This document shows, in pieces, positions 811-58,294 of a DNA stretch of 64,000 nt (within the stretch, counting starts at the first letter, position 1; every line of letters starts with the position of its first letter). A model generated the notes under the pieces. The model saw nothing but the letters and a program-made list of their open reading frames with translations, ran no database searches and was not told the origin of the DNA. The DNA is from Pristiophorus japonicus. Lineage: Eukaryota. The position numbers and the translations under genes were made by a program. The stretch is taken from assembly GCF_044704955.1 (NCBI RefSeq), contig NW_027252668.1, positions 3,534,001-3,598,000 on the forward strand, in the 5' to 3' direction.

Positions 811-2778
811 ATTAAAGCCAAGGAAGTGGCATACAAATTGGCGAGAAATAGCAGCGAACCCGGGAACTGGGAGAAATTTAGAACTCAGCCGAGGAGGACA
901 AAGGGTTTGATTAGGGCAGGGAAAATTGAGTACGAGAGGAAGCTTGCAGGGTATATTAAAATGGACTGCAAAAGCTTCTATGGATATGTAAAGAGAAAAT
1001 GGTTTGTAAAGACAAACGTAGGTCCCCTGCAGTCAGAATCAGGGGAAGTCATAACGGGGAACAAAGAAATGGCAGACCAATTGAACAATTACTTTAGGTT
1101 CGGTATTCACTAAGGAGGACACAAACAACCTTCCGGATATAAAAGGGGTCAGAGGGTCTAGTAAGAAGGAGGAACTGAGGGAAATCCTTATTAGTCGGGA
1201 AATTGTGTTGGGGAAATTGATGGGATTGAAGGCCGATACATCCCCAGGGCCTGATGGTCTGCATCCCAGAGTACTTAAGGAGGTGGCCTTGGAAATAGCG
1301 AATGCATTGACAGTCATTTTCCAACATTCCATAGACTCTGGATCAGTTCCTATAGAGTGGAGGGTAACCAATGTAACCCCACTTTTTAAAAAAAGGAGGG
1401 AGAGAGAAAACAGGGAATTATAGACCGGTCAGCCTGACATCGGTAGTGGGTAAAATGATGGAATTAATTATTAAGGATGTCATAGCAACGCAGTTGGAAA
1501 GAGGTGACATGATAGGTCCAAGTCAGCATGGATTTGTGAAAGGGAAATCATGCTTGACAAATCTTCTGGAATTTTTTGAGGATGTTTCCAGTAGAGTGGA
1601 CAAGGGAGAACCGATTGATGTGGTGTATTTGGACTTGCAGAAGGCTTTCGACAAGGTCCCACACAAGAGATTAAGGGTAGTGTGCTGACGTGGATTGAGA
1701 ACTGGTTGGCAGACAGGAAGCAAAGAGTAGGAGTCAATGGGTACTTTTCAGAATGGCAGGCAGTGACAAGTGGGGTACCGCAAGGTTCTGTGCTGGGGCC
1801 CCAGCTGTTTACATTGTACATTAATTATTTGGACGAGGGGATTAAATGTAGTATCTCCAAATTTGCGGATGACACTAAGTTGCGCTGCGAGGAGGATGCT
1901 ATGAGGCTGCAGAGTGACTTGGACAGGTTAGGTGAGTGGGCAAATGCATGGCAGATGAAGTATAATGTGGATAAATGTGAGGTTATCCACTTTGGTGGCA
2001 AAAACAGAGAGACAGACTATTATCTGAATGGTGACAGATTAGGAAAAGGGGAGGTGCAACGAGACCTGGGTGTCATGGTACATCAGTCGTTGAAGGTTGG
2101 CATGCAGGTACAGCAGGCGGTTAAGAAAGCAAATGGCATGTTGGCCTTCATAGCGAGGGGATTTGAGTACAGGGGCAGGGAGGTGTTACTACAGTTGTAC
2201 AGGGCCTTGGTGAGGCCACACCTGGGGAGTATTGTGTCCAGTTTTGGTCTCCGAACTTGAGGAAGGACATTCTTCCTGTTGAGGGCGTGCAGCGAAGGTT
2301 CACCAGACTGATTCCCGGGATGGCGGGACTGACATATCAAGAAAGACTGGATCAATTGGGCTTGTATTCACTGAAGTTCAGAAGAATGAGAGGGGATCTC
2401 ATCGAAACGTTTAAAATTCTGATGGGTTTGGACAGGTTAGATGCAGGAAAAATGTTCCCAATGTTGGGGAAATTCAGAACCAGGGGTCACAGTCTAAGGA
2501 TAAGAGGTAAGCCATTTAGGACTGAGATGAGGAGAAACTTCTTCACCCAGAGAGTGGTGAACCTGTGGAATTCTCTACCACAGAACGTTGTTGAGGCCAA
2601 TTCACTAAATATATTCAAAAAGGAGTTAGATTTAGTCCTTACTACGAGGGGGATCAAGGGGTATGGCGAGAAAGCAGGAATGGGGTACTGAAGTTGCATG
2701 TTCAGCCATGAACTCATTGAATGGCGGTGCAGGCTCGAAGGGCTGAATGGTCTACTCCTGCACATATTTTCTATGTTT
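811..2778 (+). mobile_element. CR1-clade LINE, 5'-truncated, frameshifted RT
   Basis: ORF fragments with QHGF, KAFDKVPH, GVPQGSVLGP, FADD; 3' tail TTTTCTATGTTTCT. Confidence 0.95.
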
Positions 2779-3221
2779 CTATACCAAAGACTGACAGGAA
2801 CAAAGATAGATACATACTCCCATATCAGAAACTGACTTGTACACAGATAGATAAATACTCCTATACCAGAGACGGACAGGCACACAGATAGATACATAAT
2901 CCCATACCAGAGACTGACAGGGACAGAGATAGATATATACTTCCAGACCAGACACTGACAAGCACAGAGATAGATACATACTTCTATACCACAGACTGAC
3001 AGCACAGAGATAGATACATACTCCCACCCCGGGCACAGAGATAGATACATGCTCCCATATCAGATAGTGACAGGCACAGATAGATACATGCTCCCATACC
3101 AGCGACTGTCAGCACAGAGATAGATACATACTCCAAGACCAGAAAGTGACAGCACAGATAGATGCAAACTCCCATACCAGAGACTGACAGGCACACAGAT
3201 AGATGCATACTCCCAGACCAA
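2779..3221 (+). repeat. 41-bp satellite array
   Basis: Same unit as 1-810. Confidence 0.93.
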
Positions 3222-4490: not shown

Positions 4491-4504
4491 AAAATTCCAG
4501 AAAA

Positions 4505-7390
4505 AACAGAAACTGACAGCACAGAGATAAATACATACTCCCATACCAGAGTCTGACTTGCACAGAGTTAGATACATACTTCCATACCAGACAGTAACAG
4601 GCACACACATATATATATATATATTCAGCCATACCAGAGATTGACTGGGACAGAGATAGATACATACTTCTATACCAGACACTGACAGGCACACAGATAG
4701 ATACATACACCCATACCAGCAATTGACTGGGCCAGAAATAGATAAATACTCTCATAACAGAGACTGACAGGTACAGAGATTGATACATACGCCCATACCA
4801 GAAACTGACAGCACAGATAGATACAGACTCCGATACCAGAGAATTATAGGCACAGAGATAGATACATACTCCCACACCAGAGATTGACAGCACAGAGGTA
4901 GTTACATAATTGTATACCGGACACTGACGGGCACAGAGATAGATACATACTCCCATACCAGAGACTGACTTGCACACAGATAGATACGTACTCCCAGACC
5001 AGAGACTGACCGCACAGAGATAGATACATACTCCCACACCCGGCACAGAGATACTCCCATACCAGACAGTGACAGGCACACAAATGTATACATACAACCA
5101 TACCAGCTACTGACAAGCAGAAAGATAGATACAAACTTCTATACCGACACTGACATGCACACAGATAGATACATAATCCCATACCCAAGATTGACAGGCA
5201 CAGAGATAGATACATACTACCACACCAGAGACTGACTTGCACACAGATAGATACATACTCGCAGACCAGAGACTGACGGGCACAGAGTTAGATACAAAGT
5301 CCCATACCCGGCACTGACAGGCACACAGATAGATACATGCTCCCATACCAGAAACTGACAAGCACACAGATAGATACACACTCCCACACCAGAGACTGAC
5401 AGCACAGAGATAGATACATACTCCCACACCCGGCACAGAGATAGATACATACTCCCATTCCAGAGACTGACAGCACACACATTGATACATGCTCCCATAC
5501 CCGAGACTGACGGGCACAGATAGATACATACTCAAATACCCGACACTGACAGGCACAGACTGATACGTTCTCCCATAACAGAGACTGACGGGCAGAGGTG
5601 GATACATACGCCTATACCAGCGTCTGACAGGTACAGACATAAATAGGTGCTCCCATACCAGAGATTGACTGGCACAGATAGATACATACTCCCAAAGCAG
5701 AGACTAACAGGCACAGAGATAGATACATACTTCCATACCAGAGACTGACAGGCACAGATATAGATACATTCTCCCTCACATGAGACTGACAGGCACACAG
5801 ATAGATACTTACTCCCATATCAGAGACTGACAGGCACAGAGATAGATATATACTTCCATTCCAAGCACTGATAGGCACAGAGTTGGATACATATTCCATA
5901 CCAGAGAGTGGCAGAGACAGAGATACATACTCCTATACCAGAGACTGACAGGGACAGCGATAGATACATACTCCCAGACCAGTGAATGACAGGCACAGAA
6001 AGATACAAAGTCCCACACCAGAGACTGACAGGCACAGTGATAGATACATAATCCATATCAGAGAGTGGCAGAGACAGAGATAGATACATACTCCGATACC
6101 AGAGACTGACAGGCACACAGATGGAAACATCCTTACCAGACACTAACTGGCACAGAGATAGATACATGCTCCCACACCAGCGACCGACAGGCACAAAAAT
6201 AGATACATACTCCCGTACCAGACACTGACAGGGACAGAGATAGATACATACTCCCATACCAGAGACGGACAGGGACAGAGATAGATACATACTCACATAC
6301 CAAACACGGACAGCATGGATCGATACATACTCCCGTACTTGACACTGACCGGGACAGGCAGAAATGGATACATCCTCCCATACCAGAGACTGACAGGTAC
6401 ACAGATAGATACAGATGGGAGTACCAGATGGGTAGATCAGGGCCAAGGAGAGGCGAGGGCCCAGGGGCAGCATGGACCAGCCCACACTGCGATATGTGTG
6501 CGCACTAGGTCAGTGCCGCAGAGCTGGTCTCCAGTCGTCTTGGATAACCCTTGCCACTGGACCAAGACCTAGCTCTGTCAAGTCCGTGTGGTGGCTGGTG
6601 TGCAACTGCCACCACATGTTAAAAAAAAATCGACGCACAGGTACCTTTCACCCTTTAACATGTAGTTCGGGACCTGGAATATTAGGTCTTTCATTGAAAC
6701 ACCTGTGAACTTTTTGGCATGGAAGCAAGTCATCCTCGACTCGAGGGACTGCCTATGACGATGATGACTCCCATAACAGACACGGACTGCACGGATCGAT
6801 ACATACTTCCATAGCAGACACTGACAGGGACAGAAAGATACATAGTCCCACACCAGCGATCGACAGGTACAGAGATAGATACGTACTCCCATACCAGATA
6901 TTGACCGGCACACAGATGGAAACACCCTTAGCAGACACTAACTGGCACAGAGAAAGATACATACTCCTGTACCTGACACTGACAGGGACAGAGATAGATA
7001 CATACTCACATACCAGCGACTGAAAGGGACAGAGATAGATACATACTTCCATACCAGAGAATGGCAGGCACAGAGATGGATACATACTCCCAAAGCAGAG
7101 ACTGACAGGCACACAGATAGATATTACTCCCATACCAGTCACTGAATGCACACAGATAGATACGTACTCCCATACCAGAGACTGACAGGCACAGAGATAG
7201 ATACATACTCCCATACCAGACACTGACAGGCACAGAGATAGTAACATACTCCCATACTCGACACAGACAGCACAGATAGATACATACTCCCATACTAGAG
7301 ACTGACAGACACACCGATAGATACATACTTCCATACCAGGGATTGACAGGCACATAGATAGATACATACTCCCATACCAGAGACTGACAG
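4505..7390 (+). repeat. 41-bp satellite array, interrupted at about 6420-6766
   Basis: Dozens of diverged units. Confidence 0.95.
6424..6766 (+). mobile_element. Non-autonomous bipartite RTE-derived retroposon
   Basis: 6666-6686 reads FGTWNIR (APE N-terminal motif), followed shortly by a 3' end with a (TGA)n tail; related copies at 30998 and 33865. Confidence 0.65.
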
Positions 7391-17480: not shown

Positions 17481-18697
17481 TGTGTACACAGTGTGGGGTA
17501 ACAGTGAAAGTAAATCAACTCGCTCTTTCAAATCATTGCTGCTTTCTTTCCCCAAATCAGTAGTGAATGTTCCTGATTCAGTCCCAATCTCATCGTGTCT
17601 GTTGTTCTTCGACAGTGAACAGTGGAAACACAGCCTGACAGTGAGGATGTGAGAAGTTTCACAAAGTGTATCTATTGCAGACACCAGGTGAGGAGTGTGG
17701 GAGAAGACATTTCAAGCATCGGTTATTTTGTTTTGGTGCATTGAGTTGTCCAGAACCGTGTTGCTGGTGATCGAGAGCCTGTCGCTCCCTCAGATACATC
17801 AGGATCTGGGCCCTGTGACATTCTGTTAACTACACAGGCCCTCAACTCGGTTTCAAAAGTCTGAAAACAATTGTTGTACAGCCCAGGTACTATAGTTATA
17901 TTCCAGGAAGAGATTCAGAATTTTACAAGTAGTCCCATGGGAGTGGGAGATATAAACCTGAACTGTTCCAATCGGGTGGTCCTATTCATGGACCAGTGCT
18001 GTTCGTATCGTGGTTCCCCTCTCCAGATACTTTACTTTATTATAAACAAACATGTTAATTATAACTTTACTTTTTATAGTCTCCCACTCACCTGTCCATA
18101 TCATAACTAATAATGTTCTCGTATTATTATTCTCAGAGAGAAGTACTTCACTGAGCCTGAATAAATGTGATCTTTCCTCCACCCGGAACACAAGGAACAG
18201 TGCTGTCAGCTCCTTCTCACTCACAGTAAGTATATTATCACTTACAGAGCGCAGAGACACAAAACTGGTCTCAATCCTATTGTCATAGGCAGCAGAAGCT
18301 GTCAGTCCCACAGTGATCTGAATTTCCAGAGTTACATTATGAATCCCACAGTCACTTAGAGCAGTACAATAAGATGTTGTTTCAAAGTCCAAACATATCG
18401 CACTGAGAGACAGATCCATTTTCACTCACTTACTCACAAACACAGGAACAGATAGACACTGACACAGTGTCAATCCACACTGCTGGCATACACGGACTGT
18501 CAACCAGTGCAGGCAGCTCCTTCCCACACACAGTAAGTACATTATCACTCACAGAGCGCAGAGACACAGAACTGGCCTCAATCCTACTATCACAGGCAGC
18601 AGAAGCAGTCAGTCCCACAGTAATCCAGAGTACAAGAGTTACATTGTGAATCTTACAAGGAGCAGTAGAATCAGATGCTGTTTCACCATTGAAACAG

Positions 18698-20586
18698 ATA
18701 GAAACATAGAAACATAGAAAATAGGTGCAGGAGCAGGCCATTCAGCCCTTCTAGCCTGCACCGCCATTCAATGAGTTCATGGCTGAACATGAAACTTCAG
18801 TACCCACTTCCTGCTTTCATGCCATACCCCTTGATCCCCCGAGTAGTAAGGACTTCATCTAACTCCCTTTTGAATATATTTAGTGAATTGGCCTCAACTA
18901 CTTCCTGTGGTAGAGAATTCCACAGGTTCACCACTCTCTGGGTGAAGAAGTCCCTCCTTATCTCGGTCCTAAATGGCTTACCCCTTATCCTTAGACTGTG
19001 ACCCCTGGTTCTGGACTTCCCCAACATTGGGAACATTCTTCCTGAATCCAACCTGTCCAAACCCGTCAGAATTTTAAACGTTTCTATGAGGTCCCCTTTC
19101 ACTCTTCTGAACTCCAGTGAATACAAGCCCAGTTGATCCAGTCTTTCTTGATAGGTCAGTCCCACCATCCCGGGAATCAGTCTGGTGAATCTTCGCTGCA
19201 CTCCCTCAATAGCAAGAATGTCCTTCCTCAAGTTAGGAGACCAAAACTGTACACAATACTCCAGGTGTGGCCTCACCAAGGCCCTGTACAACTGTAGCAA
19301 CACCTCCCTGCCCCTGTACTCAAATCCCCTCGCTATGAAGGCCAACATGCCATTTGCTTTCTTAACCGCCTGCTGTACCTGCATGCCAACCTTCAATGAC
19401 TGATGTACCATGACACCCAGGTCTCGTTGCACCTTCCCTTTTCCTAATCTGTCACCATTCAGATAATAGTCTGTCTCTCTATTTTTACCACCAAAGTGGA
19501 TAACCTCACATTTATCCACATTATACTTCATCTGCCACGCATTTGCCCACCCACCCAACCCATCCAAGTCACTCCGCAGCCTCACAGCACCCTCCCCGCA
19601 GCTCACACCGCCACCCAACCTAGTGTCATCCGCAAATCTGGAGACACTACATCTAATCCCCTCGTCTAAATCATTAATGTACAATGTAAACAGCTGGGGC
19701 CCCAGCACAGAACCCCGCGGCACACCACTAGCCACCGCCCGCCACTCCGAAAAGCACCCATTCACTCCAACTCTTTGCCTCCCGTCCGACAACCAGTTCT
19801 CAATCCACGCCAGCACACCACCCCCAATCCCATGCGCCCCAACTTTGCACATTAATCTCCTGTGTGGGACCTTGTCGAAAGCCTTCCGAAAGTCCAAACA
19901 CACCACATCAACCGGCACTCCCCCGTCCACTCCACTGGAAACACCCCCAAAAAACTCCAGAAGATCCGTCAAGCACGATCTCCCTTTCACAAATCCATGC
20001 TGAATTGGACCTATCATGTCACCATCCTCCAAACGCGCTGCCACGACATCCCCAATAATTGACTCCATCACTTCACCCACCACTGAGGCCAGGCTGACCG
20101 GTCCACAATTCCCTGCCCTCTCTCTCCCTCCTTTTTTAAAAAGTGGGGTTACATTGGCTACCCTCCACTCGACAGGAACTGATCCAGAGTCAATGGAATG
20201 TTGGAAAATGACTGTCAATGCATCCGCTATTTCCAAGGCCACCTCCTTAAGTACTCTGGGATGCAGTCCATCAGGCCCTGGGGATTTATCGGCCTTCAAT
20301 CCCATCAATTTCCCCAACATAATTTCCCGACTAATAAAGATTTCCCTCAGTTCCTCCTCCTTAATAGACCCTCCGACCACCTTTATATCCGGAAGGTTGT
20401 TCGTGTCCTCCCCAGTGAATACCGAACCAAAGCACCTGTTCAACTGGTCTGCCACTTCCCCGCTCCCCGCCATGACTTCCCCTGACTCTGACCGCAGGGG
20501 ACCCACGCTTGTCCTCACTAACCCTCCTCTCTTTACACACCTATAGAAACTTTTGCAATCCGCCTCAACGTTCCCTGCAAGCCCCT
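18698..20586 (-). mobile_element. Young CR1 copy, A-to-G hypermutated in its 5' half
   Basis: 573-aa open ORF; (ATAGAAAC)n tail; absent from unit B (empty site near 54075). Confidence 0.96.
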
Positions 20587-20589
20587 GAC

Positions 20590-21622
20590 ATGTAGATTAA
20601 ACACCCGCACTCACTTGCCAGAAACTGGCAGGTAGACAATAAAACACACAATCACATATCTTAATATATAAGTTAGAAAGTAAAAACAATACTCTCATAT
20701 CAGAAGCTACGGGTACAGAGCAAAAGCAATAATCACGTATCAGGAAAGGAGAGATTCAGTATTAAGCCATCTCGAATATACCAGAAAATGACAGGTGCAG
20801 AATAAAACCCACACTCCTGTACCATAGACTGACAAATACAATCTACAACCCACACCCACATAGGTGAAAGTGACACGCACAGAGTAAACTCCACACCAGA
20901 GAGTGACAGGTAGAGTGTAAATCCCAGAGTCACATGTCAGAAAACAGAGGTAAAAAGTAAAACTGATACTTGCATTGCAGAATCTGACAGTTTCTGAGCT
21001 AAAGACATATTGCCATCTCATAAACTGGCAGATGCAGAGTGAAACCCACACACACCTATCAGAAAGGTAAAACCGTTACTCACGTATCAGACAAATTCAG
21101 GTAGAACATAAAACAGATATTCACGTTCACATACCAGAGACGGGCAGATAGAGTAAATCCCCGCTCATATAGCAGGAACTGACAGGTACAGTCTAAAACA
21201 TACACCCAAATTGCAGGAGCTAATAGGTGCTGATTAAACCCAGACTAACACACCAGAAACTGAGAGGCACAGATTAAACTCCCACACACATACCTAAATC
21301 TGACAGTTACAGAAATATACACAGACTCGCATATGAGAGACACATGCAGTATAAAGCCCATATTCATGTATCATACATAAAAGCTGACAGTTACAAGTTA
21401 AACTACCACTCATAAGCCAGAAACTGACAGGTACAGATTAAACCAACACTCACATATCAGAAACTGACAGGTTCAGAATAAAATCCACAATCACATACCA
21501 GAAACTGACCAGTACAGATTAAAACAATACTCATATACCAGAAACTGACAGGAACAGATTAAAACACACACTCAGATATGAGAAACTGACAGGTACAGAA
21601 TAAACCCCACTCTCGCATACCA
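20590..21622 (+). repeat. Older diverged ~41-bp satellite variant
   Basis: Units like CAGAAACTGACAGGTACAGAATAAAACCCACACTCACATAC; also about 9430-9720, 25630-25818, 54080-55560. Confidence 0.8.
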
Positions 21623-28215: not shown

Positions 28216-29722
28216 AGACAGATACACACTCCCATACCAGAGACAGACTTGCACAGAGATAGATATACACTCCCGTAGTAGACACTGATGGGCACAGAAA
28301 TAGATACCTATTCCCATACCAGAGACTGACAGGCAAAGAGATAGATACATACTCCCATACCATGACAAGCATAGAGATAGATACATACTTCCATACCACA
28401 GACTGATAGGCACAGAGATAGATACATACTCCCATACCAGAGACTGACAGGCACTGAGATAGTTACATACTGACCAGCACACAGATAGATACATACTCCC
28501 ATACCAGAGATTGACAGCACAGTGACAGATACATACTCCCATTCACGACTCTGACTGGCACAGAGAATAGATTATTACTCCCATAGCAGATTCGCGTACC
28601 AGAGACTGACCGGCACAGAGATAGATACATACTCCCTACCAGAAACTGATCGGCACATGGATAGATACATAGTCCCATACTGGACACCACCGGACACAGT
28701 TACATTCTCCCACACCAGAGACTGACAGCACAGAGATATACACGTACTCCTATACCAGAGAATAACGGGCACAAAGATAGATACAAACTCCCATACCCGA
28801 GATTGACAGGCACACAGATAGATACATACTCCCATACCAAAGACTGACAGGCACAGTGATAGATACATGCCTACATACCAGGCACAGATAGATATATAGT
28901 CCCACACCAGACACTGACTTGCACAGAGATGGATACATATTCTCATACCAGACACTGACTGGCACAGATACATAGTCCCATACCGGAGACTGACAGCACA
29001 CAGATGGATACATACTCCCACACCCGACACTGACTGGCACAGAGTTAGATACATACTCCGATACCAGAGACTGACAGGCACACAGATAGATACTTACTCC
29101 CATACCAGAGAATGGCAGGCGCAGAGATAAATACGTACTCCCATACCAGAGATTGTAGGTGCAGAGATAGATACATACTCCCATACCCGACACTGACTGG
29201 CAGAGATAGATACATACTCCCATACCAGACACTGACAAGCACAGAGCTAGATACCAGGCCCATATCAGAGACTAAATGGCGCAGTGATAGATACATACTC
29301 CCAGACCATAGACTGACCGGCACACAGATAAATACATATTCCCATACTAGAGAATAGCAGGCATAGAGATAGATACATACTCCCATACCCAACTCTGACT
29401 CGCACAGAGATAGATACATAGTCCCATACCAGAAACGGACAGCACAGACAGATACATATTCCTATACAAGACACTAACCGGCACACAGATAAATACATAC
29501 TCCCATACCAGAGATTGACAGGCAGAGAGATAGTTACATACTCCCGTACAAGATACTGACAGGCACACAGATACATACATAATCCCATACCAGCGACTGA
29601 CTGCACAGAGATAGATACACTCACTCATACCAGACAATGACATAGATACATACTCCCACGCCAGAGACCGACAGCACAGAGATAGATACATACTCCCAGA
29701 CTAGAGAATGACAGGCACAGAG
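28216..29722 (+). repeat. 41-bp satellite array
   Basis: Same unit; preceded by a CR1 tail at about 27965-28214. Confidence 0.95.
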
Positions 29723-30900
29723 ATAGAAACATAGAAAATAGTTGGAGGAGTAGGCCATTCGGCCCTTCGAGCCTACACCGCCATTCAAAAGATCATGGCT
29801 GATCATTCCTTCAGTACCCCTTTCCTGCTTACTCTCCATACCCCTGGATCCCCTTAACCCTAAGAGCCATATCTAACTCCCTCTTGAATATATCCAATGA
29901 ACTGGCATAAACAACTCTCTCTGGCAGGGAATTCCACAGGTCAACAACTCTGAGTGAAGAAGTTTCTCCTCATCTCAGTCCTAAATGGCCTACCCCTTAT
30001 CCTAAGAATATGGCCCCTGGTTCTGGACTTCCCCAACATCGAGAACATTCTTCCTGCATCTAACCTGTCCAGTCCCGTCCGAACCTTGTGTTTCTATATG
30101 AGATCCCCTCTCATCCTTCTAAACACCAATGAATAAAGGCCCAGTTGATCCAGTCTCTCCTCATATAACAGCCCAGCCATCCCTGGAATCAGTCTGGTGA
30201 ACCTTTGCTGCACTCCCTCAGCAGCAAGAACGTCCTTCCTCAGACTAGGAGACCAAAAGTGAACACAATATTCCAGGTGAGGCCTCACTAAGGCCCTGTA
30301 CAATTGCAGTAAGACCTCCCTGCTCCTATATTCAAATTCCCTAGCTATGAAGGCCAACATACCATTTGCCTTCTTGACCGCCTGCTGTACCTGCGTGCCC
30401 ACTTTGTGACCGATGAACCATGACACCCAGGTCTCGTTGCACCTCCAATTTTTCTAGTCTGCCGCTGTTCAGATAATATTCTGCCTTTGTGTTTTTGCCC
30501 CCAAAATGGATAACCTCACATTTATCCACATTATACTGCATCTGCCATGTATTTGCCCACTCACCTAATCTGTCCAAGTCACCCTTCAGCCTCTTAGCGT
30601 CCTCCTCACAGCTCACACCGCCACCCAGTTTAGTGTCATCCGCAAACTTGGAGATATTACACTCGATTCCTTCATCCAAATCGTTAATGTATATTGTAAA
30701 GAGCTGGGGTCCCAGCACCGAGCCCTGCGGCAGCCCACTAGTAACTGCCTGCCATTCTGAAAAGGACCTGTTTATCCTGACTCTCTGCTTCCTGTCTGTC
30801 AACCAGTTCTCTATCCACGTCAGTACATTACCCCCAATACCATGCGCTTTGATTTTGTACACCAATCTCTTGTGCGGGACCTTGTCAAAAGCCTTTTGAA
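29723..30900 (-). mobile_element. CR1 3' fragment in satellite
   Basis: ORFs 30094..30426 and 30341..31045. Confidence 0.93.
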
Positions 30901-31310: not shown

Positions 31311-32261
31311 AATACTCCCAAACCAGAGACTGTCTTGCACACAGATCGATACATACTCGCGTACCAGAAACTGACAGGCACAGTGATAGATGCATACTCC
31401 CATACCAGTGAATGGAAGACACAAAGATAGATACGTACTCCCATACCAGAGATTGACAGGCATAGAGATAGATATATACTGCCATATGCGACACTGACTG
31501 GCAAACAGAAAGATACATACGCCAGACCAGAGAATGAATGACACAGATAGATACATTCCCCCATACCAGAGACTGACATGCACAGAGATAGATACATACC
31601 CCCATACCAGACACTGACAGAGATAGATACATACTCCCATACCGGAGACTGATGGGCACACAGATAGATACTTAATTCCATACCAGGCACTGGCAGGGAC
31701 AGAGAGATACATACTGACAGGCGCAGAGATAGATGCATACTCCCAGACCAGAGACTGACTTGCACACAGATAGATACATAATCTCATACCAGAGATTGTA
31801 GGCGCAGAGATAGATACATACTCCCATACCAGAGAATGGCAGGCACAGAGATAGATATATATGCTCATTCCAGACACTGACTGGCACAGAGATAGATACA
31901 TACTCCCATACCAGAAAATGACAGGCACACAGATAAATACATATTCCCATACCAGAGAATAGCAGGCACAGAGATAGATACGTACTCCCGTACCAGAGAC
32001 TGACCGGCATAGAGGTAGATAAATACTTCCACACCAGACACTGACAGGCACAGAGATAGGTACATACTCCCACACCAGAGACTGATAGGTACAGAGTTAG
32101 ATACATACTCCCAGACCAGGGAATGACAGGTACAGAGATAGATACGTACGCTCGTACCAGAGACTGACAGGCACAGTGAAAGATACATACTCCCATACCA
32201 GAGATTGACAGGCATAGAGATAGATACATACACCCATACCGGACACTGACAGCACACAGAT
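31311..32261 (+). repeat. 41-bp satellite array
   Basis: Same unit. Confidence 0.95.
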
Positions 32262-33778
32262 AAAGATGAAATAGCAGCACATTTGGAAAGCAGTGACAGA
32301 ATCGGTCCAAGTCAGCATGGATTTATGAAAGCGAAATCATGCTTGACAAATCGTCTGTAATTTTGAGAATGTAACTAGTAGAGTGGACATGGGAGAACCA
32401 GTGGATGTGGTGTATTTGGACTTTCAAAAGGCTTTTGACACGGTCCCACACGAGATTGGTGTGCAAAATTAAAGCACATGGTATTGGGGGTAATGTACTG
32501 ACATGGATAGAGAACTGGTTGGCAGACAGGAAGCAGAGAGTCGGGATAAACGGGTCCTTTTCAGATGACAGGCAGTGACTAGTGGGGTGCCGCAGGGCTC
32601 AGTGCTGGGACCCCAGCTATTAACATTAATGATTGAGATGAAGGAATTGAGTGTAATATTTCCAAGTTTGCAGATGACACTAAACTGGGTGGCGGTGTGA
32701 GCTGTGAGGAGGACGCTAAGAGGCTGCAGGGTGACTTGGACAGGTTAGGTGAGTGGGCAAATGCATGACAGATGCAGTACAATGTGGATAAATGTGACGT
32801 AATCCACTTTGGGGGCAAAAACACGAAGGCAGATTATTATCTGAATGGCGGCAGATTAGGAAAAGGAGAGATGCAATGAGAGCTGGGTGTCATGGTACAT
32901 CAGCCATTGAAAGCTGGCATGCAGGTACAGCAGGTGGTGAAGAAGGCAAATGTTATGTTGGCCTTCGTAGCTAGGGGTTTTGAGTATGGGAACAGGGAGG
33001 TCTTACTGCAGTTGTACAGGGCCTTGGTGAGGCCTCACCTGGAATATTGTGTTCAGTTTTGGTGGTCTAATCTGAAGAAGGACGTTCTTGCTATTGAGCG
33101 AGTGCAGCGAAGGTTCACCAGACTGATTCCCAGGATGGCTGGACTGACATGAGGAGCCATGACCTTGTTGAATGGCGGAGCGGGCTTCAGAGGCTAGATG
33201 GCCTACTCCTGTTCCTAATTCTTATGTTCTTATGAAAGACTGGATCGACTGGGCCTGTATTCACTGGAGTTTCGAAGGATGAGAGGGAATCTCATGGAAA
33301 CATATAAAATTCTGACGAACTGGACAGGTTAGATGCAGAAGGAATGTTTCCGATGTTGGGGATGTCCCGTACCAGAGACTGACAGGCACAGAGATAGATG
33401 CATACTCCCATACCAGAGACTGACAGGCACACAGATAGATACATACTCCCAGACCAGAGACTGGGGAAGTCCAGAACCAGAGGACATAGTCTTAGGATAA
33501 GGGATAGGCCATTTAGGACTGAGATGAGGAGAAACTTCTTCACTCAGAGAGTTGTTGACCTGTGGAATTCCCTACCGCAGAGAGTTGTTGATGCCAGTTC
33601 ATTGGATATATTCAAGAGAGAGTTAGATATGGCCCTGACGGCTAAAGAAATCAAGGGGTATGGAGAGAAAGCAGGAAAGGGGTACTGAGGTGAAGGATCA
33701 GCCATGATCTTATTGAATTTTGGTGTAGGCTCGACGGGCCGAAAGGCCGACTCCTGCATCTATTTTCTATGTTTCTAT
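32262..33778 (+). mobile_element. CR1 fragment with nested CR1 tail (~33155-33233) and satellite insert (33368-33461)
   Basis: RT region with stops; tail TTTTCTATGTTTCTAT. Confidence 0.92.
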
Positions 33779-44449: not shown

Positions 44450-47400
44450 TTAAAATTTGGTTGCCGGGCGTGATGATGCACTCCAGTCCCTCCGGTGCCC
44501 ACCTCTCGCGGAAGGCCACGAGCGTACCGGTGGACACCGCGTGCTCCATCTCCAAGGACACCCTGGACCGGATGTAAGAGCGGAAGAGAGGCAGGCAGTC
44601 AGGTTGAACGACCCCCTCGACCGCCCGCTGCCTGGACCGGCTGATGGCACCCTAGGCCGTGCCCAGGAGCAGTCCTACGAGGAAGCCCTCGGACCTACCC
44701 GCTCCCCTCCGCACAGGGTGCCCAAAGATCAGGAGAGTGGGACTGAAGTGCAGCCAGAATTTCAGGAGCAGCCCCTTTAAATAATAAAACAGGGGCTGCA
44801 ACCTCGTGCACTCAATAAAAACATGGAACACGGACTCCTCCAGACCGCAGAAATTGCAGGCGGCCTGGGAGTCCGTGAACCGGCTTAAAAATTTGTTGCA
44901 CGGCACTGCTCCGTGCACCACCCTCCAGGCCAAGTCCCCGATGAATAGTGGGAGGACTCCCGCATAGAGTGCCCTCTATCGGGGACCACTGCCTCCTCCG
45001 GACGGCAAGATGGTACGCCATGGCGTGTCCGGACGGCCGGCGAGGATGGAAAAGTTGAGAGTGTGCAGGAGCAGCCCATACAGGAAACCCCTCCGCGCGG
45101 AACTGAAAAGCACGGAGGAGATTTCCCCGAGGCGGCTCAAGTTGTGAGGCGCCGGCCCCCGAGGGAGGTTCCGGGGTTTGGCGCCGATGAGGAATTCCGT
45201 CCGGACGGGGGTCAGTTCGGACGGGATCTCCCCACGTGCTTGAGCCTCCTTGATGCACCTAACAGAGTCAGGGCCCAAAGCTGTTTTTAGCGACTCGATG
45301 GCTTTGGCCGCGCGGCGGACGTCGGCTGAATTTAGGCGCCACGCCAGCGTGCCTGGCGCCATCCAGCCCGCTCCTCCGCCATCGAGCAGGTCCCTGACCC
45401 TGGTCACCTCACCAGCCACAGCCCTCTCCTCCGACCGCCACATAAAACCTCGGTCGTGGAGGTACGGATTCCCGAGCAGCGGCTCCTGCAGGACAGCCGC
45501 CACTCCAGCCGGCGGAGAGCTGCGCTTGGTGGAGACTTTGTTCCAGACCCTGATGAGTTCCTTGTAAAAGACAGGCAGCTCCCGGAGGGCGGTCCTGACA
45601 CCCCCCAAGTTCATAAACAGGAGCTGCATGTCGTAATTGAGGTCGCGCTGCTGGCGGAAGAAATACGTCGCCAGAGCACACCACCTAGGAGGGGGCTCGA
45701 CGTAAAGGTATCTCTGCAGGGTCTGAAGACGGAAAGTCGCGAGCTGGGCGCTGACGCACACAACGACTGACCGCCCTCCTCAAGCGGGAGACTCAAGACC
45801 GCGGCAGAGACCCAGTGCTTCCTGTTGTTCCATAAGAAGTCCACCAGCTTCTTCTGTAACTTGGCGACAAACGCAGGGGGAGGGGTCAAAGTGACCAGCC
45901 GGTACCACAACATTGCGGCCACCAGCTGGTTTATGACTAGCGCTCGACCCCTGTAGGACAGCACTCGGAGCAGTCCTGTCCAGCGCCCTAGGCGAGCGAC
46001 GACCTTGGCCTCCAGCTCCTGCCAGTTCGCCGGCCAGGCTTCCTCGTCGGGGCTAAGGTAGACTCCCAGATAGAGGAGATGGGTCGTACTCCAGGCAAAA
46101 GGCCTGAGCTCCTCCGGCAGGGAGTCCACCCGCCACTGACCCACCAGGAGTCCGAAACATTTCTCCCAGTTGATCCTGGCGGAGGACGCGGCCGAGTAAA
46201 TCTCCTGGCACTCACACATCCTCCGCAGGTCAGCGGGATCCTCTACCGCGAGGAGCACGTCATCGGCATAAGCCGAGAGGACGACCTCCACGCCCGGCCC
46301 TTGCAGAGCCAGTCCCGTCAACCTCGTCCGCAGGAGGCGCAGGAAAGGCTCCACGCAGATGGCATATAATTGGCCGGACATGGCGCATCCCTGGCGCACC
46401 CCTCTCCTAAAGCGAAGGGGCGCCATCAAGGACCCGTTAACCTTAATCAGACACTCTGCGGCGGCGTACAAAAGTCGGATCCGGGCGACGAAATACGTCC
46501 CGAACCCGAAAGCGTGCAGAGTTCCGAGCAGATAGTCGTGATCCACCCTGTCGAACGCCTTCTCTTGGTCGAGAGATAGGAAGGCGACCGACAGACCAGC
46601 CTCCTGGGAATGATTGATGAGGTCCCGGACCAGATGGATGTTGTCGTGGATTGTCCGGCCCGGGACCATGTAGGACTGGTCGGGGTGGATCATGTGGTCC
46701 AGCACGGCACCGAGGCGAGCATACATCGCCCTGGCGAAGATCTTGTAGTCCGTGCTGAGGAGGGAGACCGGGCGCCAGTTCTTAAGGAGGTGGAGATTGC
46801 CCTTCTTAGGCAGCAGGACGATGACTGCCCTGCACCAAGAGAGGGGCATCTCCCCGGTCGCCAGACTTTCCCCCAGGACCCGCGCGTAGTCGCTCCCCAG
46901 GACGTCCCAGAATGCCCTGTGGAACTCCACGGTCAGCCCGTCCAGCCCCGGGGTTTTTCCCCTCGAGAGCCGGTCGAGGGCACCGGTCAGCTCCGCCAGG
47001 CTTAGCGGAGCTTCCAAATTTTCACCGCCCTCCGGGCTGACTTTCGGCAGGTCCTCCCACAAAACTCTATGCGCTTCCTCGCTGGACGGATCCGGAGAGA
47101 ACAGAGCCCCGTAATATTCACGGGCCCTGTTGTTGACGCCCTCCGGATCCAAGACGAGAGAGCCGTCGTCGGCCAGCAGCGTCAAGAGCTGCTTGCGGAC
47201 ACTCTGCCTTTTTTCCAGCGAGTAGAAGAATAGGGAGCCGCGGTCCAGATCCCACAGGAACCGGATCCGCGACCTCACGAACGCGCCTCGGGACCCGACG
47301 AGCTGCAGGTCCTTCAGCGTGGCCTTCTTCGCTTCGTACACCGTCCGCAGGGCCGGGTCCCCGACGACTTGACCGAGACGGGACTCCAGGTCGAGCACCT

Positions 47401-48343
47401 CTTTTTCTAGGCGCCTGACCCTGGCTGCCGGCCTCTTGGTCGACCCCCTCGCGTACTCTTGACAGAAGACGCAGACGTGAGCCTTGCCCACGTCCCACCA
47501 TAGCCTCAAGGAGGGGAAGCCCCCCTGCTTCCTTCTCCAGTTGGCCCAGAATCGACGGAACGAGTCCTGGAACCGCTCGTCCTCCAGCAGCCGGTTGTTA
47601 AAGTGCCAGTACGCGGACCCCATCCTTGCGCGGAGCGAAGCAAGCTCCGCCCACACCAGGTGGTGGTCCGAACACGGCACCGGCCGCATGGAGGCCGCCG
47701 GGACGCAGGAAACGTTCGCCCGAGACACGTAAAGGCAGTCGACTCTGGACCATCCTACTCCAGGCCTCACCCAAGTAAAGGCGCTGGAGTCGGGATGGAG
47801 ATTTCGCCAGACGTCCACCAAGTCGAAGGACCCGACCAGGTCCCTCAACTTCCCCATCGCCGTCATGCTCTGCGGGGCACCGGAGCGGTCCCTCGCCTCG
47901 AGGGTGCAGTTAAAATCCCCCCCGAGGACAATGCAGTCGCCGACGTCGACGGAGCCAAGAAGAGCGGACACCTCTTCGAAGAAGCGCATTTGCTGCGGGC
48001 CTGGCTGAGGGGCGTACACGTTCATGAGATGGAGCGGCACGTCCCCCAGGCGAACCGTTACGTGCAGCAAGCGGCCTGGCATGGGCTTCTCGACCCCCAA
48101 GATCTCCGGCTAAAAATGCAGGGCCAGCAAGATGGCCACCCCACTAGAAGTGGCGGTGAGGTGGCTCATGCGGACCTCTCCTTGCCATTCCAGGAGCCAC
48201 GTGGCTTCGTCTCCCGGAACGGTGTGGGTTTCTTGCATGAAGCACACCGCATATTTCCCCTCCAGCAGGAGCGAAAAATTGTTAAATCTACGGCGTGCCT
48301 CTTTGCCGCCGTTGATGTTGAGGCTGGCTATGGTTATCTCCAT
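44450..48343 (-). pseudogene. Tx1 ORF2 (APE endonuclease, RT, zinc ribbon), disrupted
   Basis: SLNING, QETH, GGDFN, SDH; WRPVSLL, KAFD, QGCAMS, YADD; CNFC..HVFIEC; stops at 48110 and 44976 plus frameshifts. Confidence 0.95.
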
Positions 48344-48368: not shown

Positions 48369-50470
48369 CTAACCTATTGTTGGGGGGGGGAGTGGAGTCG
48401 TTTGCTGACCTCCACTCCTTCAGCAGCCCAGCGAGGAACTTTTTGAGCCGGCGCAGCTCAAGGCCTTGCATCTTTGATAAGGGCCCGCCCGCGGCCATGG
48501 TTTTAGCGGCGGCGCGGACGGAAGCGATGAGCAGCCCCGGCTCGGATCATCTTTCCCGGACCAGATGGGCTCGGTTGCGGCGACCCTGGCTCTCGACAAA
48601 AAAGTCCCGGAGTACCTCTACGGGAATGAGGGGGGACTCAGCGGCGGGCACGAGGAGATCCACCGCCTCACTGGCGATGGACTCGAGATCTTCACCCGCG
48701 TCCTCCACCGAGTCCCCGTCCTCCTCCGGGAGGTCGCCGCTAGCAGCCGGCCCGTCGACCGCACGAGGTACGGCAAACGGCCCGGCCGCTCCATCCGGCC
48801 CTGGCTCTGCCCCGATCCCACCCCCAGGATCGTCGGCAGAGGAGTCCCCACTGGGCTCTTTTAGAATTGGTGCTGGGTCGGGGAGCGACAGCGGAAGGGG
48901 TTCCTCCTCCGCCCCAGGAACCGGGAAACACGGAGAGACCTGGTCAAAGAAATGAACCAGGTCCTCCAAGTCCCCCAGCCCCAAAGTAGGGGGCGAGGGT
49001 TGTTGTTTTTCCCCTTCTCCGCTGCCACCCCCCGGCCCAGCGTGTACAGATTCATTAAAATTGCTAATACTTTGTATTTCTGCCGGGTCGAGCAAGTCCC
49101 GGGGGAAGTTGGATATTGGCTGGGCGGGCTCGGGTTCGGCCTTTTCGGCCCCGCCCGCCTCAGTCCCCGGGACGCTCGACCCGGCGGCAACGCATTCCTC
49201 TGCTGGCCCCACGCCCCCCATGACAGGCAGATCTTTCACACCATCCCCGGGAGGCAGCGGCTGGGCAGCCTCGACTGTCCCACCCTCCCCGGGGACAGAT
49301 TCCTCGCGCCTATGGCACGGTTTGGGGGCGCCGGTGGGGGACGCGTGACACGCGGCGGGCACCGACTCCTCCGCGGAGGGATGTTGTTCCCCCCCCGCCT
49401 CATTGGAGCGGCGCCTCCTTTTGTTCCTGGGGGGGGCGCGGAGGCAGGGAGACCTCCATGTCTGCCGAAGCCTCCCGCTCCACCCACCCCTTTTTCTTGT
49501 CTTGCCCGCGCCCGAGCCCCTCTGTGATACTGATCAAGGGCTCGGGCACGGGCTCAGGGCACCCCGCGCTCGCCGGTGACGGGGTTGGGCCGAGCGCGGT
49601 AAATAGATTATCTGGTGCACTGAGGGGACCCGCCTCTAGATGTTTCGTCTTCTTCCGTGCCTTCTTTCCGGTCGGACGCTCTCCCTCCCCCCCACCGGAG
49701 GCCGTGAAAACAAAGGCCTCCGACGATGCCTGCGCACCTATGGCTCCCGGCACGCGGACGCAACTAGGGGGAGGGGTGGCGGCGGCGCCAGCCTTGGCCG
49801 CCTTTGGTGGTTTGGCGGCTTTGGAGGCGGGGCAGTTCTTGCGAACATGCCCCACCTCCCTACAGGCATGGCACCGCACGCCGTCCGATGTCCAGAAGAC
49901 ACGGTAGGCATTCCCCTCGTGCACCACATTAAAATTGCCCTCTGTTGTCTCCTCCCACGCCAGCCGGACAAAGAGCTGGCGGCGGAAGGAGAACACATGG
50001 CGCAGGCTGTTCTCCCTGAGGCCGAGCGGTATGGGGTTGATCCCCGACCTTACCTCCCCCAGTTGGTGTCGGTGAGGGAGGAGGAGCTCAGCGGGAACAA
50101 AGGGCGGGACATTCGATAGAATGACCCTCTGCGCGGTGGCCTCGAGAGGGTCCACCGGCAGGAACGCCCCGCCCACCGTGAGCCCCTTTTCAATGGCCAG
50201 GGACACCGCTCGCTCCGACCCCAGGAAGAACACGGCCTTCCCAGACATCTTGGAGGCTGCGACAATGGCCGAGGGGCCGACTACCCCAGCCATCGCCCGC
50301 ACGCACTCAATGCTCATTGTGGGGTGAGTGTAGCTCTTGACCCCGTTTTTCTTTGTAATGAGTCTGAAAGGTGGCAGGGCAGCAGGTGGCGCAGGAGGTG
50401 CCGTGGATGTGGACGCCGCCTGCGCATATGTCCTAGCTGGCCCTGCCACCGGCGTAGATGGGGTCGCCAT
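48369..50470 (-). pseudogene. Tx1 ORF1, frameshifted
   Basis: YAQAA motif, VILSNVPPF, zinc knuckle CHACREVGHVRKNC; continues in ORF 48547..49362; 3' end approximate. Confidence 0.9.
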
Positions 50471-51378
50471 CACGGGGTCCCTTTAAGGGCCACACCCACC
50501 CCAAAGTCACAGGCCTTAATGGTCTTAAGTGGCCTCGTTTGAATGTATGAACAGAGGGAGCTCTGAAAGAGGCACACCTCTCCCCTAGTTGGCAATTGGG
50601 GAGGGGCCTTGCTCCCTCTGCTCAGTTGTTTTAATTGTTTTTTATTAAAAAATTAGGAGGAAGGGCTCTCAGAGAGAGAGGGGAGAGACAGAGAGAGAGA
50701 GATAGAGTGAGGGGGTGTGGGAAAGAGGGAGGCTGCGAGGGCAGGTCTCCCCTCACAGCAATGGGTGGGTGCACTCCCCAGATGGCAAAACAAAACACAG
50801 TCTTTGGGGTGGGGGGAGAAGATGTCTTCACCTGGGGCAGCTGGAGCCACACAGGCACACACACCCAACGATGTTAACCAGGGTAATCAATAGTTATCAG
50901 CCTGGTAGCTCCAACTATCCCAGGCTAGGCAATGGGGGAGGGGAGCTTCAGTGGTGTGTGGGGCCTAGTTGTAAGCAAGAACCCCACACACACTTCCACA
51001 CACACACACCCCCCGCGATGTTCCGGCCCTTGAAAGGTCTTCCTTTCTCCCCCCACCAATAAAACAATGTCTTTCGGGGAATGCACCAACACCCACCTGC
51101 AGAATATTGCAGAATCTCCCTCCCTCCACACAGGTTGTTGCTCTTTCCACTCTCTCCAACTCTCTGTAGCAGTAATAAAGTTGGTAATTTTTCTGCGCTC
51201 CACCTCTCCCTCCGGATGTTGATTGGGTAGCAAGCCAGCCCTTCCCTCCTATTCCTGGGCTGTTCTCAGGGCTCACTCCAGACAGGAGCAAAGCAGGTAG
51301 CTCCTTCTCTCTCTGCAGCTTAGCTCCAACTGAATAGGCCACGCCTCCACTGCTCCACCATTGGCCCTTGTGCATGAG

Positions 51379-56457: not shown

Positions 56458-57028
56458 GTCAGAGCCGCCAAGCCTGGCACCAGCAAACCCTGGGGGCAGT
56501 GCCACCCGCACACCACTTGCATTTATGCAGCAGGCCCAGCAATTCCCAGTCGCTCTATCAGGGAGGGCGCTGGATGTGGAAGTCTCTCCCTGACCTCCTG
56601 TGTGGGTCTGTTCGTTGCATCAGTTTGAGCTGGAGTGGGGAGGAGGGAGAAGCTGCTGGGTTTCACCCCCAGTACTTCTGGGCCCAGTGGGACCAACAAT
56701 TTCCCATGTGGGACTGTCACGGGAGGTGGGTTCCCTTTCCTGAAGGACAGTCGTGACCCAGATGTGTTTTTATGACAATCCGGCAGCTTTCATTGTCACT
56801 TTTTTCTAGTGCTGGCCCCACAAATGACCAGATTCATCAAGCTCAATTTCACAAACTGCCTTTGTGTTTTTGTGGGTTCTCTCTCACACTCCCTTTTACC
56901 TGTTTGAAATTCACTTTATAGGGTATTAAAAGGGGAGGATTTGTAGACTGGAAGCTCAAACCAAACATCACTTCAAGATCTGACAGTCACTCGATACATC
57001 GGGACCGGAATATCATCAGCTTTTGACC

Positions 57029-58294
57029 ATGGAAGCAGAAGGCACCGTTCACAGTGGGGAGAAACGGTACACGTGCTCTGTGTGTGGACAAGGCTTCAGC
57101 CAATCATCCAACCTGGAGAGACACAAGCACAGTCACATTGGGGAGAAACCATGTAAATGTGAGGACTGTGGGAAACGATTCAACTACCCGTCCCAGCTGA
57201 AAATGCACCAGCCATTTACCTGCTCTGACTGTGGGAAGGGATTCACTGCATCATCCCACCTGCTGACACACCAAGTTCCCACTGGGGAGAGGCTGTTCAT
57301 CTGCACGGAGTGTGGGAAGGGATTCACTGTATCATCCAGCCTGCTGACACACCAGCGAGTTAACACTCGGGAGAGTCCGTTCACCTGCTCCGACTGTGGG
57401 AAGGGATTCACTGCATCATCCCACCTGCTGACACACCAGCAAGTTCCCACTGGGGAGAGGCCGTTCACCTGCTCCGACTGTGGGAAAGGATTCACTCAGT
57501 TATCCGCCCTACTGAGACACCAGCGAGTTCACACTGGGGAGAGACCTTTTAAATGTTCTGACTGTGAGAAGAGTTTTAAAAGCAAACAGCAACTCCTGAC
57601 ACACCAGCGAGTTCACACTGGGGAGAGGCCGTTCACCTGCTCCGAGTGTGGGAAGAGATTCACTCAGTCATCCAGCCTGCTGACACACCAGCAAGTTCAC
57701 ACCGGGGAGAGGCCGTTCACCTGCGTGGAGTGTGGGAAGGGTTTCACTGTATCATCCAGCCTGCTGATACACCAGCAAGTTCACACTGGGGAAAGGCCGT
57801 TCTCCTGCTCCGACTGTGGGAAGGGATTCACTCAGTTATTCGCCCTGCTGAGACACCAGCGAGTTCACACTGAGGAGAGACCTTTTAAATGTTCTAACTG
57901 TGAGAAGAGTTTTAAAAGCAAACAGCAACTCCTGACACACCAGCGAGTTCACACTGGGGAGAGGCCTTTTAAATGTTCTGACTGTGAGAAGAGTTTTAAA
58001 AGCAAACAGCACCTGCTGATACACCAGCGACTTCACACTGGGGAGAGGCCGTTCACCTGCTCAGAGTGTGGGAAGGGATTCACTCTGTCATACCACCTGC
58101 TGAGACACCAGCGAATTCACACAGGGGAGAGGCCGTTCAGCTGCTCTGAATGTGGGATGGGATTCACTCGGTCAGCCCACCTGCTGAGACACCAGCGAAT
58201 TCACACTGGGGAGAGGCCGTTCACCTGCTCAGAGTGTGGGAAGGGATTCATTCGATCATCCAACCTGCTGAGCCACCAGCGAGTTCACAAGTGA
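57029..58294 (+). CDS. Tandem C2H2 zinc-finger protein, 15 finger units, no KRAB visible
   Basis: Open ORF from ATG 57029 with TGERPF linkers; candidate splice acceptor at 56921. Confidence 0.93.

Follow-up and report, generated by a model that had tools for sequence, protein, structure and literature searches.

Sense-strand A-to-G clusters in CR1-type LINE copies of Pristiophorus japonicus as a probable genomic record of ADAR-edited RNA

We analysed a 64-kb stretch (the window) of the 5.9-Gb Pristiophorus japonicus assembly, which contains several copies of one LINE family. One of them, copy A (L001; 18,700 to 20,584, minus strand), is a 5'-truncated CR1-type insertion, delimited by family alignment and by empty sites, whose sense strand is hyper-edited from A to G. 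These changes very probably go back to a LINE RNA that was hyper-edited by ADAR and then reverse-transcribed and inserted, the enzyme and an antisense partner being deduced from genomic DNA.

Results

Anatomy of copy A and its locus

Copy A holds only the reverse transcriptase (RT) part of ORF2, an open frame of 599 aa (18,797 to 20,596, minus strand) that matches Pfam RVT_1 with 74 bits, compared with 117 bits for the sister copy, and that retains the catalytic Asp residues. Relative to L009, a near-complete copy of the family, the frame carries 63 missense and 29 silent changes and no stop, in agreement with an earlier reading, made from the sequence only, that it had stayed open. The 3' UTR (18,698 to 18,796, minus strand) is unedited. 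Besides a short inverted repeat it has a tandem tail with an 8-bp unit, (TTTCTATG)n; a short stem was predicted, and the fold of the whole UTR was not significant against shuffled sequences (z -1.05). The first two inserted bases (20,583 to 20,584, minus strand) are GG where the family has AA; they are probably two further edits at the 5' junction, with untemplated bases as the alternative.

All ten flank units examined (L201-L210) are paralogous empty sites lacking copy A, as expected for a clean insertion, and the joint 18,699-20,585 is also present in contigs from the sequencing runs. Comparison with the empty site revealed microhomology to the element tail in the left flank (18,690 to 18,699, plus strand) and the loss of 4 bp (CAAA), and no target-site duplication was found when the flanks were compared with the empty sites. 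The differences between the flanks and their paralogs were mixed and unbiased, with no editing.

The DNA flanking copy A recurs in approximately 40 scored places, nearly all on the same contig. The window also contains a C2H2 zinc-finger array of 436 aa (56,984 to 58,294, plus strand) and degenerate satellite arrays of approximately 40 bp, interrupted by LINE fragments, at 1-811, 4,495-6,413, 6,767-7,390, 28,216-29,733 and 31,312-32,262; it appears to be a single unit within a duplicated zinc-finger/satellite cluster.

Identity of the LINE family

Two further family copies in the window served for comparison, an unedited sister copy with 3 A-to-G changes (L008; 22,907 to 24,817, minus strand) and an older copy in the opposite orientation, used as an outgroup (902 to 2,782, plus strand), in which 76 of 92 edited sites read A. 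The older copy had been described as near-identical (at 811 to 2,778), and this was not the case: its identity to the sister copy is only 92%. L009 encodes an ORF1 of 312 aa with a Lipase_GDSL_2 match (E=1.2e-12) and an ORF2 of 1002 aa with Exo_endo_phos and RVT_1 in one frame; it thus has the APE endonuclease and RT joined in ORF2 and the esterase ORF1 of a CR1-type LINE. The esterase domain in ORF1 of such elements was reportedly described by Kapitonov and Jurka in 2003.

A hairpin and an 8-bp microsatellite tail in the CR1 3' UTR, both proposed as RT recognition sites, are described in passages of PMC8665684 and PMC4316615. The tail of our family has the same 8-bp unit length, but its sequence differs from the avian ATTCTRTG. 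The family fits CR1 as described in those passages, a label that is based on domains and descriptions. In about one family copy in five (18 of 89 among the unedited ones), a further family-like copy, mostly antisense, follows directly on the 3' side (L061-L090, L121-L180), possibly through a target preference mediated by tail microhomology.

Edit spectrum and clustering in copy A

The sequence-only reading had counted about 90 plus-strand T-to-C differences, that is A-to-G on the sense strand, and few others. We obtained much the same picture with three yardsticks. Against the sister copy, the sense strand showed 99 A-to-G, 7 G-to-A, 3 T-to-C and 3 C-to-T changes, a few of the 99 being misaligned columns at the 5' junction; against the column majorities of 28 family copies there were 95 A-to-G and 8 other changes (3 of them G-to-A), and the nearest neighbour gave 94 A-to-G.

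The 28-copy columns also bore out the description of two clusters separated by a nearly untouched gap and followed by a nearly untouched 3' part. The main cluster (19,551 to 20,118, minus strand) contains 63 edits, or 63 of the 167 As in 19,546-20,125, and the 5' cluster (20,374 to 20,569, minus strand) contains 28, out of 80 As in 20,366-20,582. In the gap between them (20,126 to 20,365, minus strand) a single A of 69 is edited, at 20,173, and in 18,698-19,545 only 3 of 241 As were changed to G. The 3' part of ORF2 (18,797 to 19,550, minus strand) is accordingly almost unedited; the column comparison places edits at 18,952 and 18,953, and 18,904 is an A-to-G column polymorphic within the family. 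The edits were distributed 27/34/31 over the codon positions.

The claim of an ADAR neighbour bias held in part. Avoidance of a 5' G was strong, with 8 of 70 As after G edited versus 83 of 176 others (p=7e-8), and As after T were favoured (27 of 45 edited). The predicted excess of a 3' G was not significant in copy A alone (p 0.09-0.2) and became so only on pooling (p=6e-12). APOBEC DNA editing, which leaves clusters of G-to-A on the sense strand, was considered and rejected: beside the low G-to-A count of copy A, 90 copies of an unbiased sample had at most 9 G-to-A changes per 300 nt.

The edits are part of the genomic DNA

The copy A locus is present a second time as an inverted duplicate 0.49 Mb away (L002), which is 98.7% identical to it, flanks included. 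The two have 90 of 91 comparable edits in common, whereas none of their other changes (8+8) is common to both; the edits therefore predate any background mutation and were present at duplication.

An assembly artefact, through polishing with edited RNA reads or through base-calling errors, is so improbable that it can practically be set aside. Systematic mismatch clusters are documented as artefacts (PMC2873906), and the public sequencing runs, whose kind (DNA) is a guess and whose listed pieces cover parts of copy A, may derive from the assembled sample. The runs nevertheless agree with the assembly: contigs of run X3 match 19,699-19,766 and 19,737-19,817 with 0 differences over 12 edited sites and two private copy A changes, and a contig of run X1 matches 19,531-19,636 with 2 differences over 10 edited sites; none of the pieces listed for runs X5 and X8 lies over the edited clusters. 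The edited letters had been predicted to appear in DNA reads, and X3 carries them. An artefact would also have to produce 90 of 91 common edits in paralogs differing by 1.3%, and to follow the same rules of strand and context at 26 or more loci on many chromosome-scale contigs.

Other edited insertions in the genome

A search for directional A-to-G clusters in other CR1 copies, as the sequence-only reading had proposed, was productive; edited copies used as queries already brought up more copies laden with A-to-G. Genome probes detected at least 26 independent A-to-G-clustered insertions of the family, on many chromosome-scale contigs. An event was counted from 11 A-to-G in 300 nt upwards; L004, L007 and L094 (8-16 A-to-G) lay under this threshold and were not counted, and of the 26 events 25 were pooled, L239 being left out. 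An edited copy that is present twice (L034/L035 and L091/L092; C1361 and C62; 99.87% identical including flanks) was counted once; the L091/L092 pair is a very recent duplicate or a haplotig.

The sense double-edit probe matched 18 loci, equal to 16 events, all of them hyper-edited; the 12 that were new carry 52-290 A-to-G each. A second probe matched 13 loci, or 12 events, of which 11 were hyper-edited and one was weak. The probes shared 3 events apart from copy A, and capture-recapture by hand gave at least about 45 edited copies. The change PQG to PRG, seen in most events, was required by the first probe and carries no evidential weight. To estimate the frequency, we used a sense-strand anchor free of A, and so unalterable by editing, which matched 5,835 places. 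Among the first 90 of 100 listed matches, all on contig C1, one was hyper-edited (1/90; 95% CI 0.03-6%) and none had more than 5 T-to-C per 300 nt, so that about 1% of the approximately 5,800 family copies are hyper-edited.

The non-A/G divergence of the edited events extends from 0.04% to 8%, which indicates that editing recurred throughout the life of the family. L231, L241 and L239 belong to older subfamilies, for which the yardstick is poorer. The events occur on different source lineages and each has an edit set mostly of its own (the median Jaccard index of 248 pairs is 0.24), with more overlap than expected by chance, reproducible hot sites (split-half residual rho 0.38) and, in heavily edited pairs, overlap of up to 0.8 of the smaller set. 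We read the overlap as site preference; partly shared ancestry could also produce it. If G were instead ancestral or typical of a subfamily, the rest of the copies having changed from G to A, an overlap above chance would be expected as well. This view is refuted by the column counts, since at 89 of 95 sites no more than 3 of the 28 other copies have G; at most of the sites the older family copies of the window carry A, and the edit sets differ among events on different lineages. We regard it as almost certainly wrong. None of the three outcomes that the sequence-only reading had named as contrary to its view (a G state that is ancestral or common to a subfamily, lack of an ADAR neighbour bias, DNA reads without the changes) was observed.

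L212 (C18:107691492-107701491) is a near full-length copy of 4.3 kb with 246 A-to-G relative to L009 across ORF1 and ORF2; its initial 400 nt and its final 300 nt hold few of them. The 5' ends of several insertions nearly coincide: those of L001, L183 and L166 lie within 4 nt at AAGCTT, and those of L186/L231 and of L181/L236 are identical. L181 and L236 also have 6 rare variants in common and may come from one source. Truncation hotspots occur in unedited family copies too, so that cleavage at a particular site of the edited RNA is no more than a possible explanation for the shared 5' ends.

Searches beyond the family gave no comparable clusters. A second LINE in the window (45,611-48,109 and 49,400-50,482, both minus strand), which we take to be Tx1/L1-like, is young, GC-rich and A-poor, has an RT frame of 832 aa and yielded about 5,000 first-look candidates. 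There was no A-to-G cluster in its 30 nearest copies, a sample biased to unedited ones, and one double-edit probe gave 0 matches, with the unedited denominator uncounted. An anchor for a third family matched 23 loci, of which 13 were aligned; these were too mixed for judging A-to-G clusters. Among other repeat families in 355 kb of flanking DNA (2,118 pairs), no stretch of at least 7 successive mismatches of one type was detected, at low power, and no same-type mismatch run was found in the other repeat pairs within the window.

Sequence context of the edits

When 25 events were pooled, the spectrum comprised 2,924 A-to-G, 246 G-to-A, 155 C-to-T and 76 T-to-C changes. In the edited zones, the edit rate by 5' neighbour was 0.50 for U, 0.46 for A, 0.30 for C and 0.16 for G (p 2e-127), and the rate was lower after G in 25/25 events. 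By 3' neighbour it was 0.39 for G (1079/2773), 0.37 for A, 0.28 for U and 0.26 for C, and the top triplet in the first 19 events was UAG (0.59). The order of 5' neighbours preferred by ADAR is U>A>C>G. The published motif, with upstream G depleted and downstream G enriched (Porath, Carmi, Levanon 2014; the motif description in PMC4365171), matches the pooled context. Background A-to-G changes in unedited copies also had a slight 5' G deficit (3.4 vs 3.9-7.7 per 1000), which was far weaker.

We also looked for the A_deamin domain in the genome and found six loci (C2, C3, C5, C13, C28, C32), presumably the number expected for ADAR1-3, ADAD1-2 and ADAT1.

The 3' end of the element is spared

Relative to the number expected from context, edits became rarer towards the 3' end. 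Downstream of the probe sites the observed/expected counts were 810/804, then 241/512, 134/356, 14/134 (the 70 nt before the 3' UTR) and 3/121 (the 3' UTR itself); upstream bins at equal distance gave 431/491 and 757/709. Edited 3' ends may fail to be copied, or a bound RT may shield the 3' end.

Both this sparing and the sequence context bear on the idea that bursts of G misincorporation opposite T by the LINE RT or a second-strand polymerase, for example during dATP shortage, produced the changes with no deaminase at all. Such bursts would be episodic, confined to the insertion and of the A-to-G type on the sense strand, as observed. They do not predict that As after G are avoided threefold and that UAG ranks first (slippage beside G should, if anything, favour 5' G), and they leave the spared 3' UTR unexplained. 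Misincorporation is thus a very unlikely source of the clusters.

Timing of editing and the duplex partner

Editing could in principle have taken place at each locus after insertion, by ADAR acting on the DNA of an RNA:DNA hybrid or by gene conversion with cDNA of edited transcripts. The same ADAR context would result, and inverted family copies are numerous in the region. Several observations oppose it. The flanks of copy A are unedited, and the edits extend to the first inserted bases and not beyond. The antisense family copies that host the insertions L188 and L184 have no excess of A-to-G or T-to-C. An antisense double-edit probe found 0 loci in the genome, against 16 events for the sense probe, with unedited denominators of 68/90 (antisense) and 72/90 (sense). 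Edited copies are not nested in family copies more often than unedited ones (4/19 vs 18/89), and nesting in inverted family copies was for that reason rejected as the cause of editing. The edits of L001 and L002, finally, were already there at duplication, with no background change in common. We therefore consider change after insertion highly improbable; the empty antisense probe, the clean antisense hosts and the lack of a nesting excess together indicate that editing occurred on the sense RNA before insertion. The proposal that an edited LINE RNA had been retrotransposed is in this way supported, by the strand-specific spectrum, the ADAR context and the unedited flanks.

The sequence-only reading had further taken the clusters and the gap as a map of duplexed regions, which we could not sustain. 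Other events are edited inside the gap of copy A (20,126-20,365), and the intrinsic fold of the RNA was rejected as the duplex: the longest self-inverted match is 14 nt, and residual editing did not follow predicted pairing (rho 0.06, p 0.21). Because the element lacks a long internal inverted repeat and its edits do not follow its own fold, the partner was probably antisense RNA of the LINE family. An A:C-mismatch test for a diverged antisense partner, limited to young events, was mixed: the two identity bins gave p 0.16 and 0.23, and pooling gave 0.003 on 13 sites.

Source of the reverse transcriptase

In L034, L188, L184 and L182 the catalytic FADD has become FADG or FSDG, and in L186 it has become FAGG. 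An RT without its catalytic aspartate cannot work. Five edited copies thus lack a functional catalytic site, which implies that the RT was made before editing or was supplied in trans; judged by these sequences, it likely came from unedited RNA.

Discussion

We propose the following course of events. RNA of the family would pair with antisense family RNA, given that the element cannot fold into a long duplex by itself. ADAR, to which the context points, would deaminate 10-60% of the As in a patchwise manner, the pattern that we observed. Only RNAs with an intact 3' end would then be copied, and the sparing of that end might reflect a need of the RT for hairpin and tail, or shielding by bound RT. 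As the catalytically dead copies suggest, the RT would have been translated before editing or provided in trans, and it would carry out target-primed insertion; at copy A the insertion is 5'-truncated, with a 4-bp loss of target. Inosine would be copied as G during reverse transcription and so enter germline DNA. The locus of copy A was duplicated soon after insertion, as its inverted duplicate shows.

On a broader view, which seems to us reasonably probable, ADAR hyper-editing has been a recurrent and heritable mutagen of this LINE, affecting approximately 1% of insertions throughout the life of the family. Many of the edited copies would be RT-incompetent; the enzyme that copied them would have come from unedited RNA and recognised the unedited 3' end, leaving dozens of dated single-molecule germline records. 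If this is true, the records also map the part of the CR1 RNA that must stay unedited in order to jump.

The usual fate ascribed to hyper-edited RNA is retention or destruction. Our data indicate that, in a vertebrate germline, LINE RNA can go through retrotransposition even when heavily edited, and RNA editing can in this way give rise to inherited changes in DNA. Each copy preserves the ADAR footprint of a single RNA molecule as a fossil, open to dating and to comparison between species. Together the copies amount to a mutational scan of the CR1 3' end performed by nature, in which edits in the last ~100 nt are almost never tolerated, and they allow cis and trans action of the CR1 RT to be tested against each other. 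Repeat annotation requires some caution, as edited copies appear 5-18% diverged and hence falsely old.

In the parts of the literature covered, we found no report of ADAR-edited LINE copies in germline genomic DNA. Related systems are known. ADAR hyper-editing of long dsRNA, in the portion of PMC4365171 concerned, is seen in RNA reads compared with an unedited genome; the edits of copy A are genomic, inherited and duplicated. In a mouse provirus with an excess of A-to-G, ADAR was considered and the context did not fit, according to a passage of PMC12548423. For human LINE-1, the sections of PMC5224506 concerned report no editing in over 2.5 kb of L1 RNA in cell culture and a restriction of L1 by ADAR1 that is editing-independent. 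There too ADAR meets LINE RNA or RNP, but the CR1-type copies differ in that they are massively edited and the edited RNAs were inserted; that ADAR1 spared L1 RNA in culture counts against our reading of an ADAR-edited LINE RNA.

APOBEC DNA editing of LTR retrotransposons (Knisbacher and Levanon, PMC4866542, in the part concerned) likewise leaves a strand-biased deaminase footprint in a minority of genomic copies. The screen described there covered LTR elements and DNA transposons and kept G-to-A-dominant alignments. APOBEC acts through C deamination of minus-strand cDNA, giving G-to-A in LTR elements, whereas the CR1-type copies carry A-to-G changes from the RNA stage of a LINE.

A further parallel is found in BLV. 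That reverse transcription can record ADAR hyper-editing is already known from somatic retroviral proviruses, as set out in sections of PMC8025556, which also cite ADAR-type edits in HTLV-2 and STLV-3 proviruses. In the U3 region of the BLV 3' LTR, as in our family, edited RNA was reverse-transcribed and integrated, so that A-to-G changes stand in the DNA. The BLV proviruses belong to somatic exogenous retroviruses and carry 7 or more edits in windows of approximately 70 bp; unlike them, the CR1-type copies are germline non-LTR LINEs in which 1-4 kb can hold as many as 290 edits; there are 26 or more such insertions, and their 3' end is spared.
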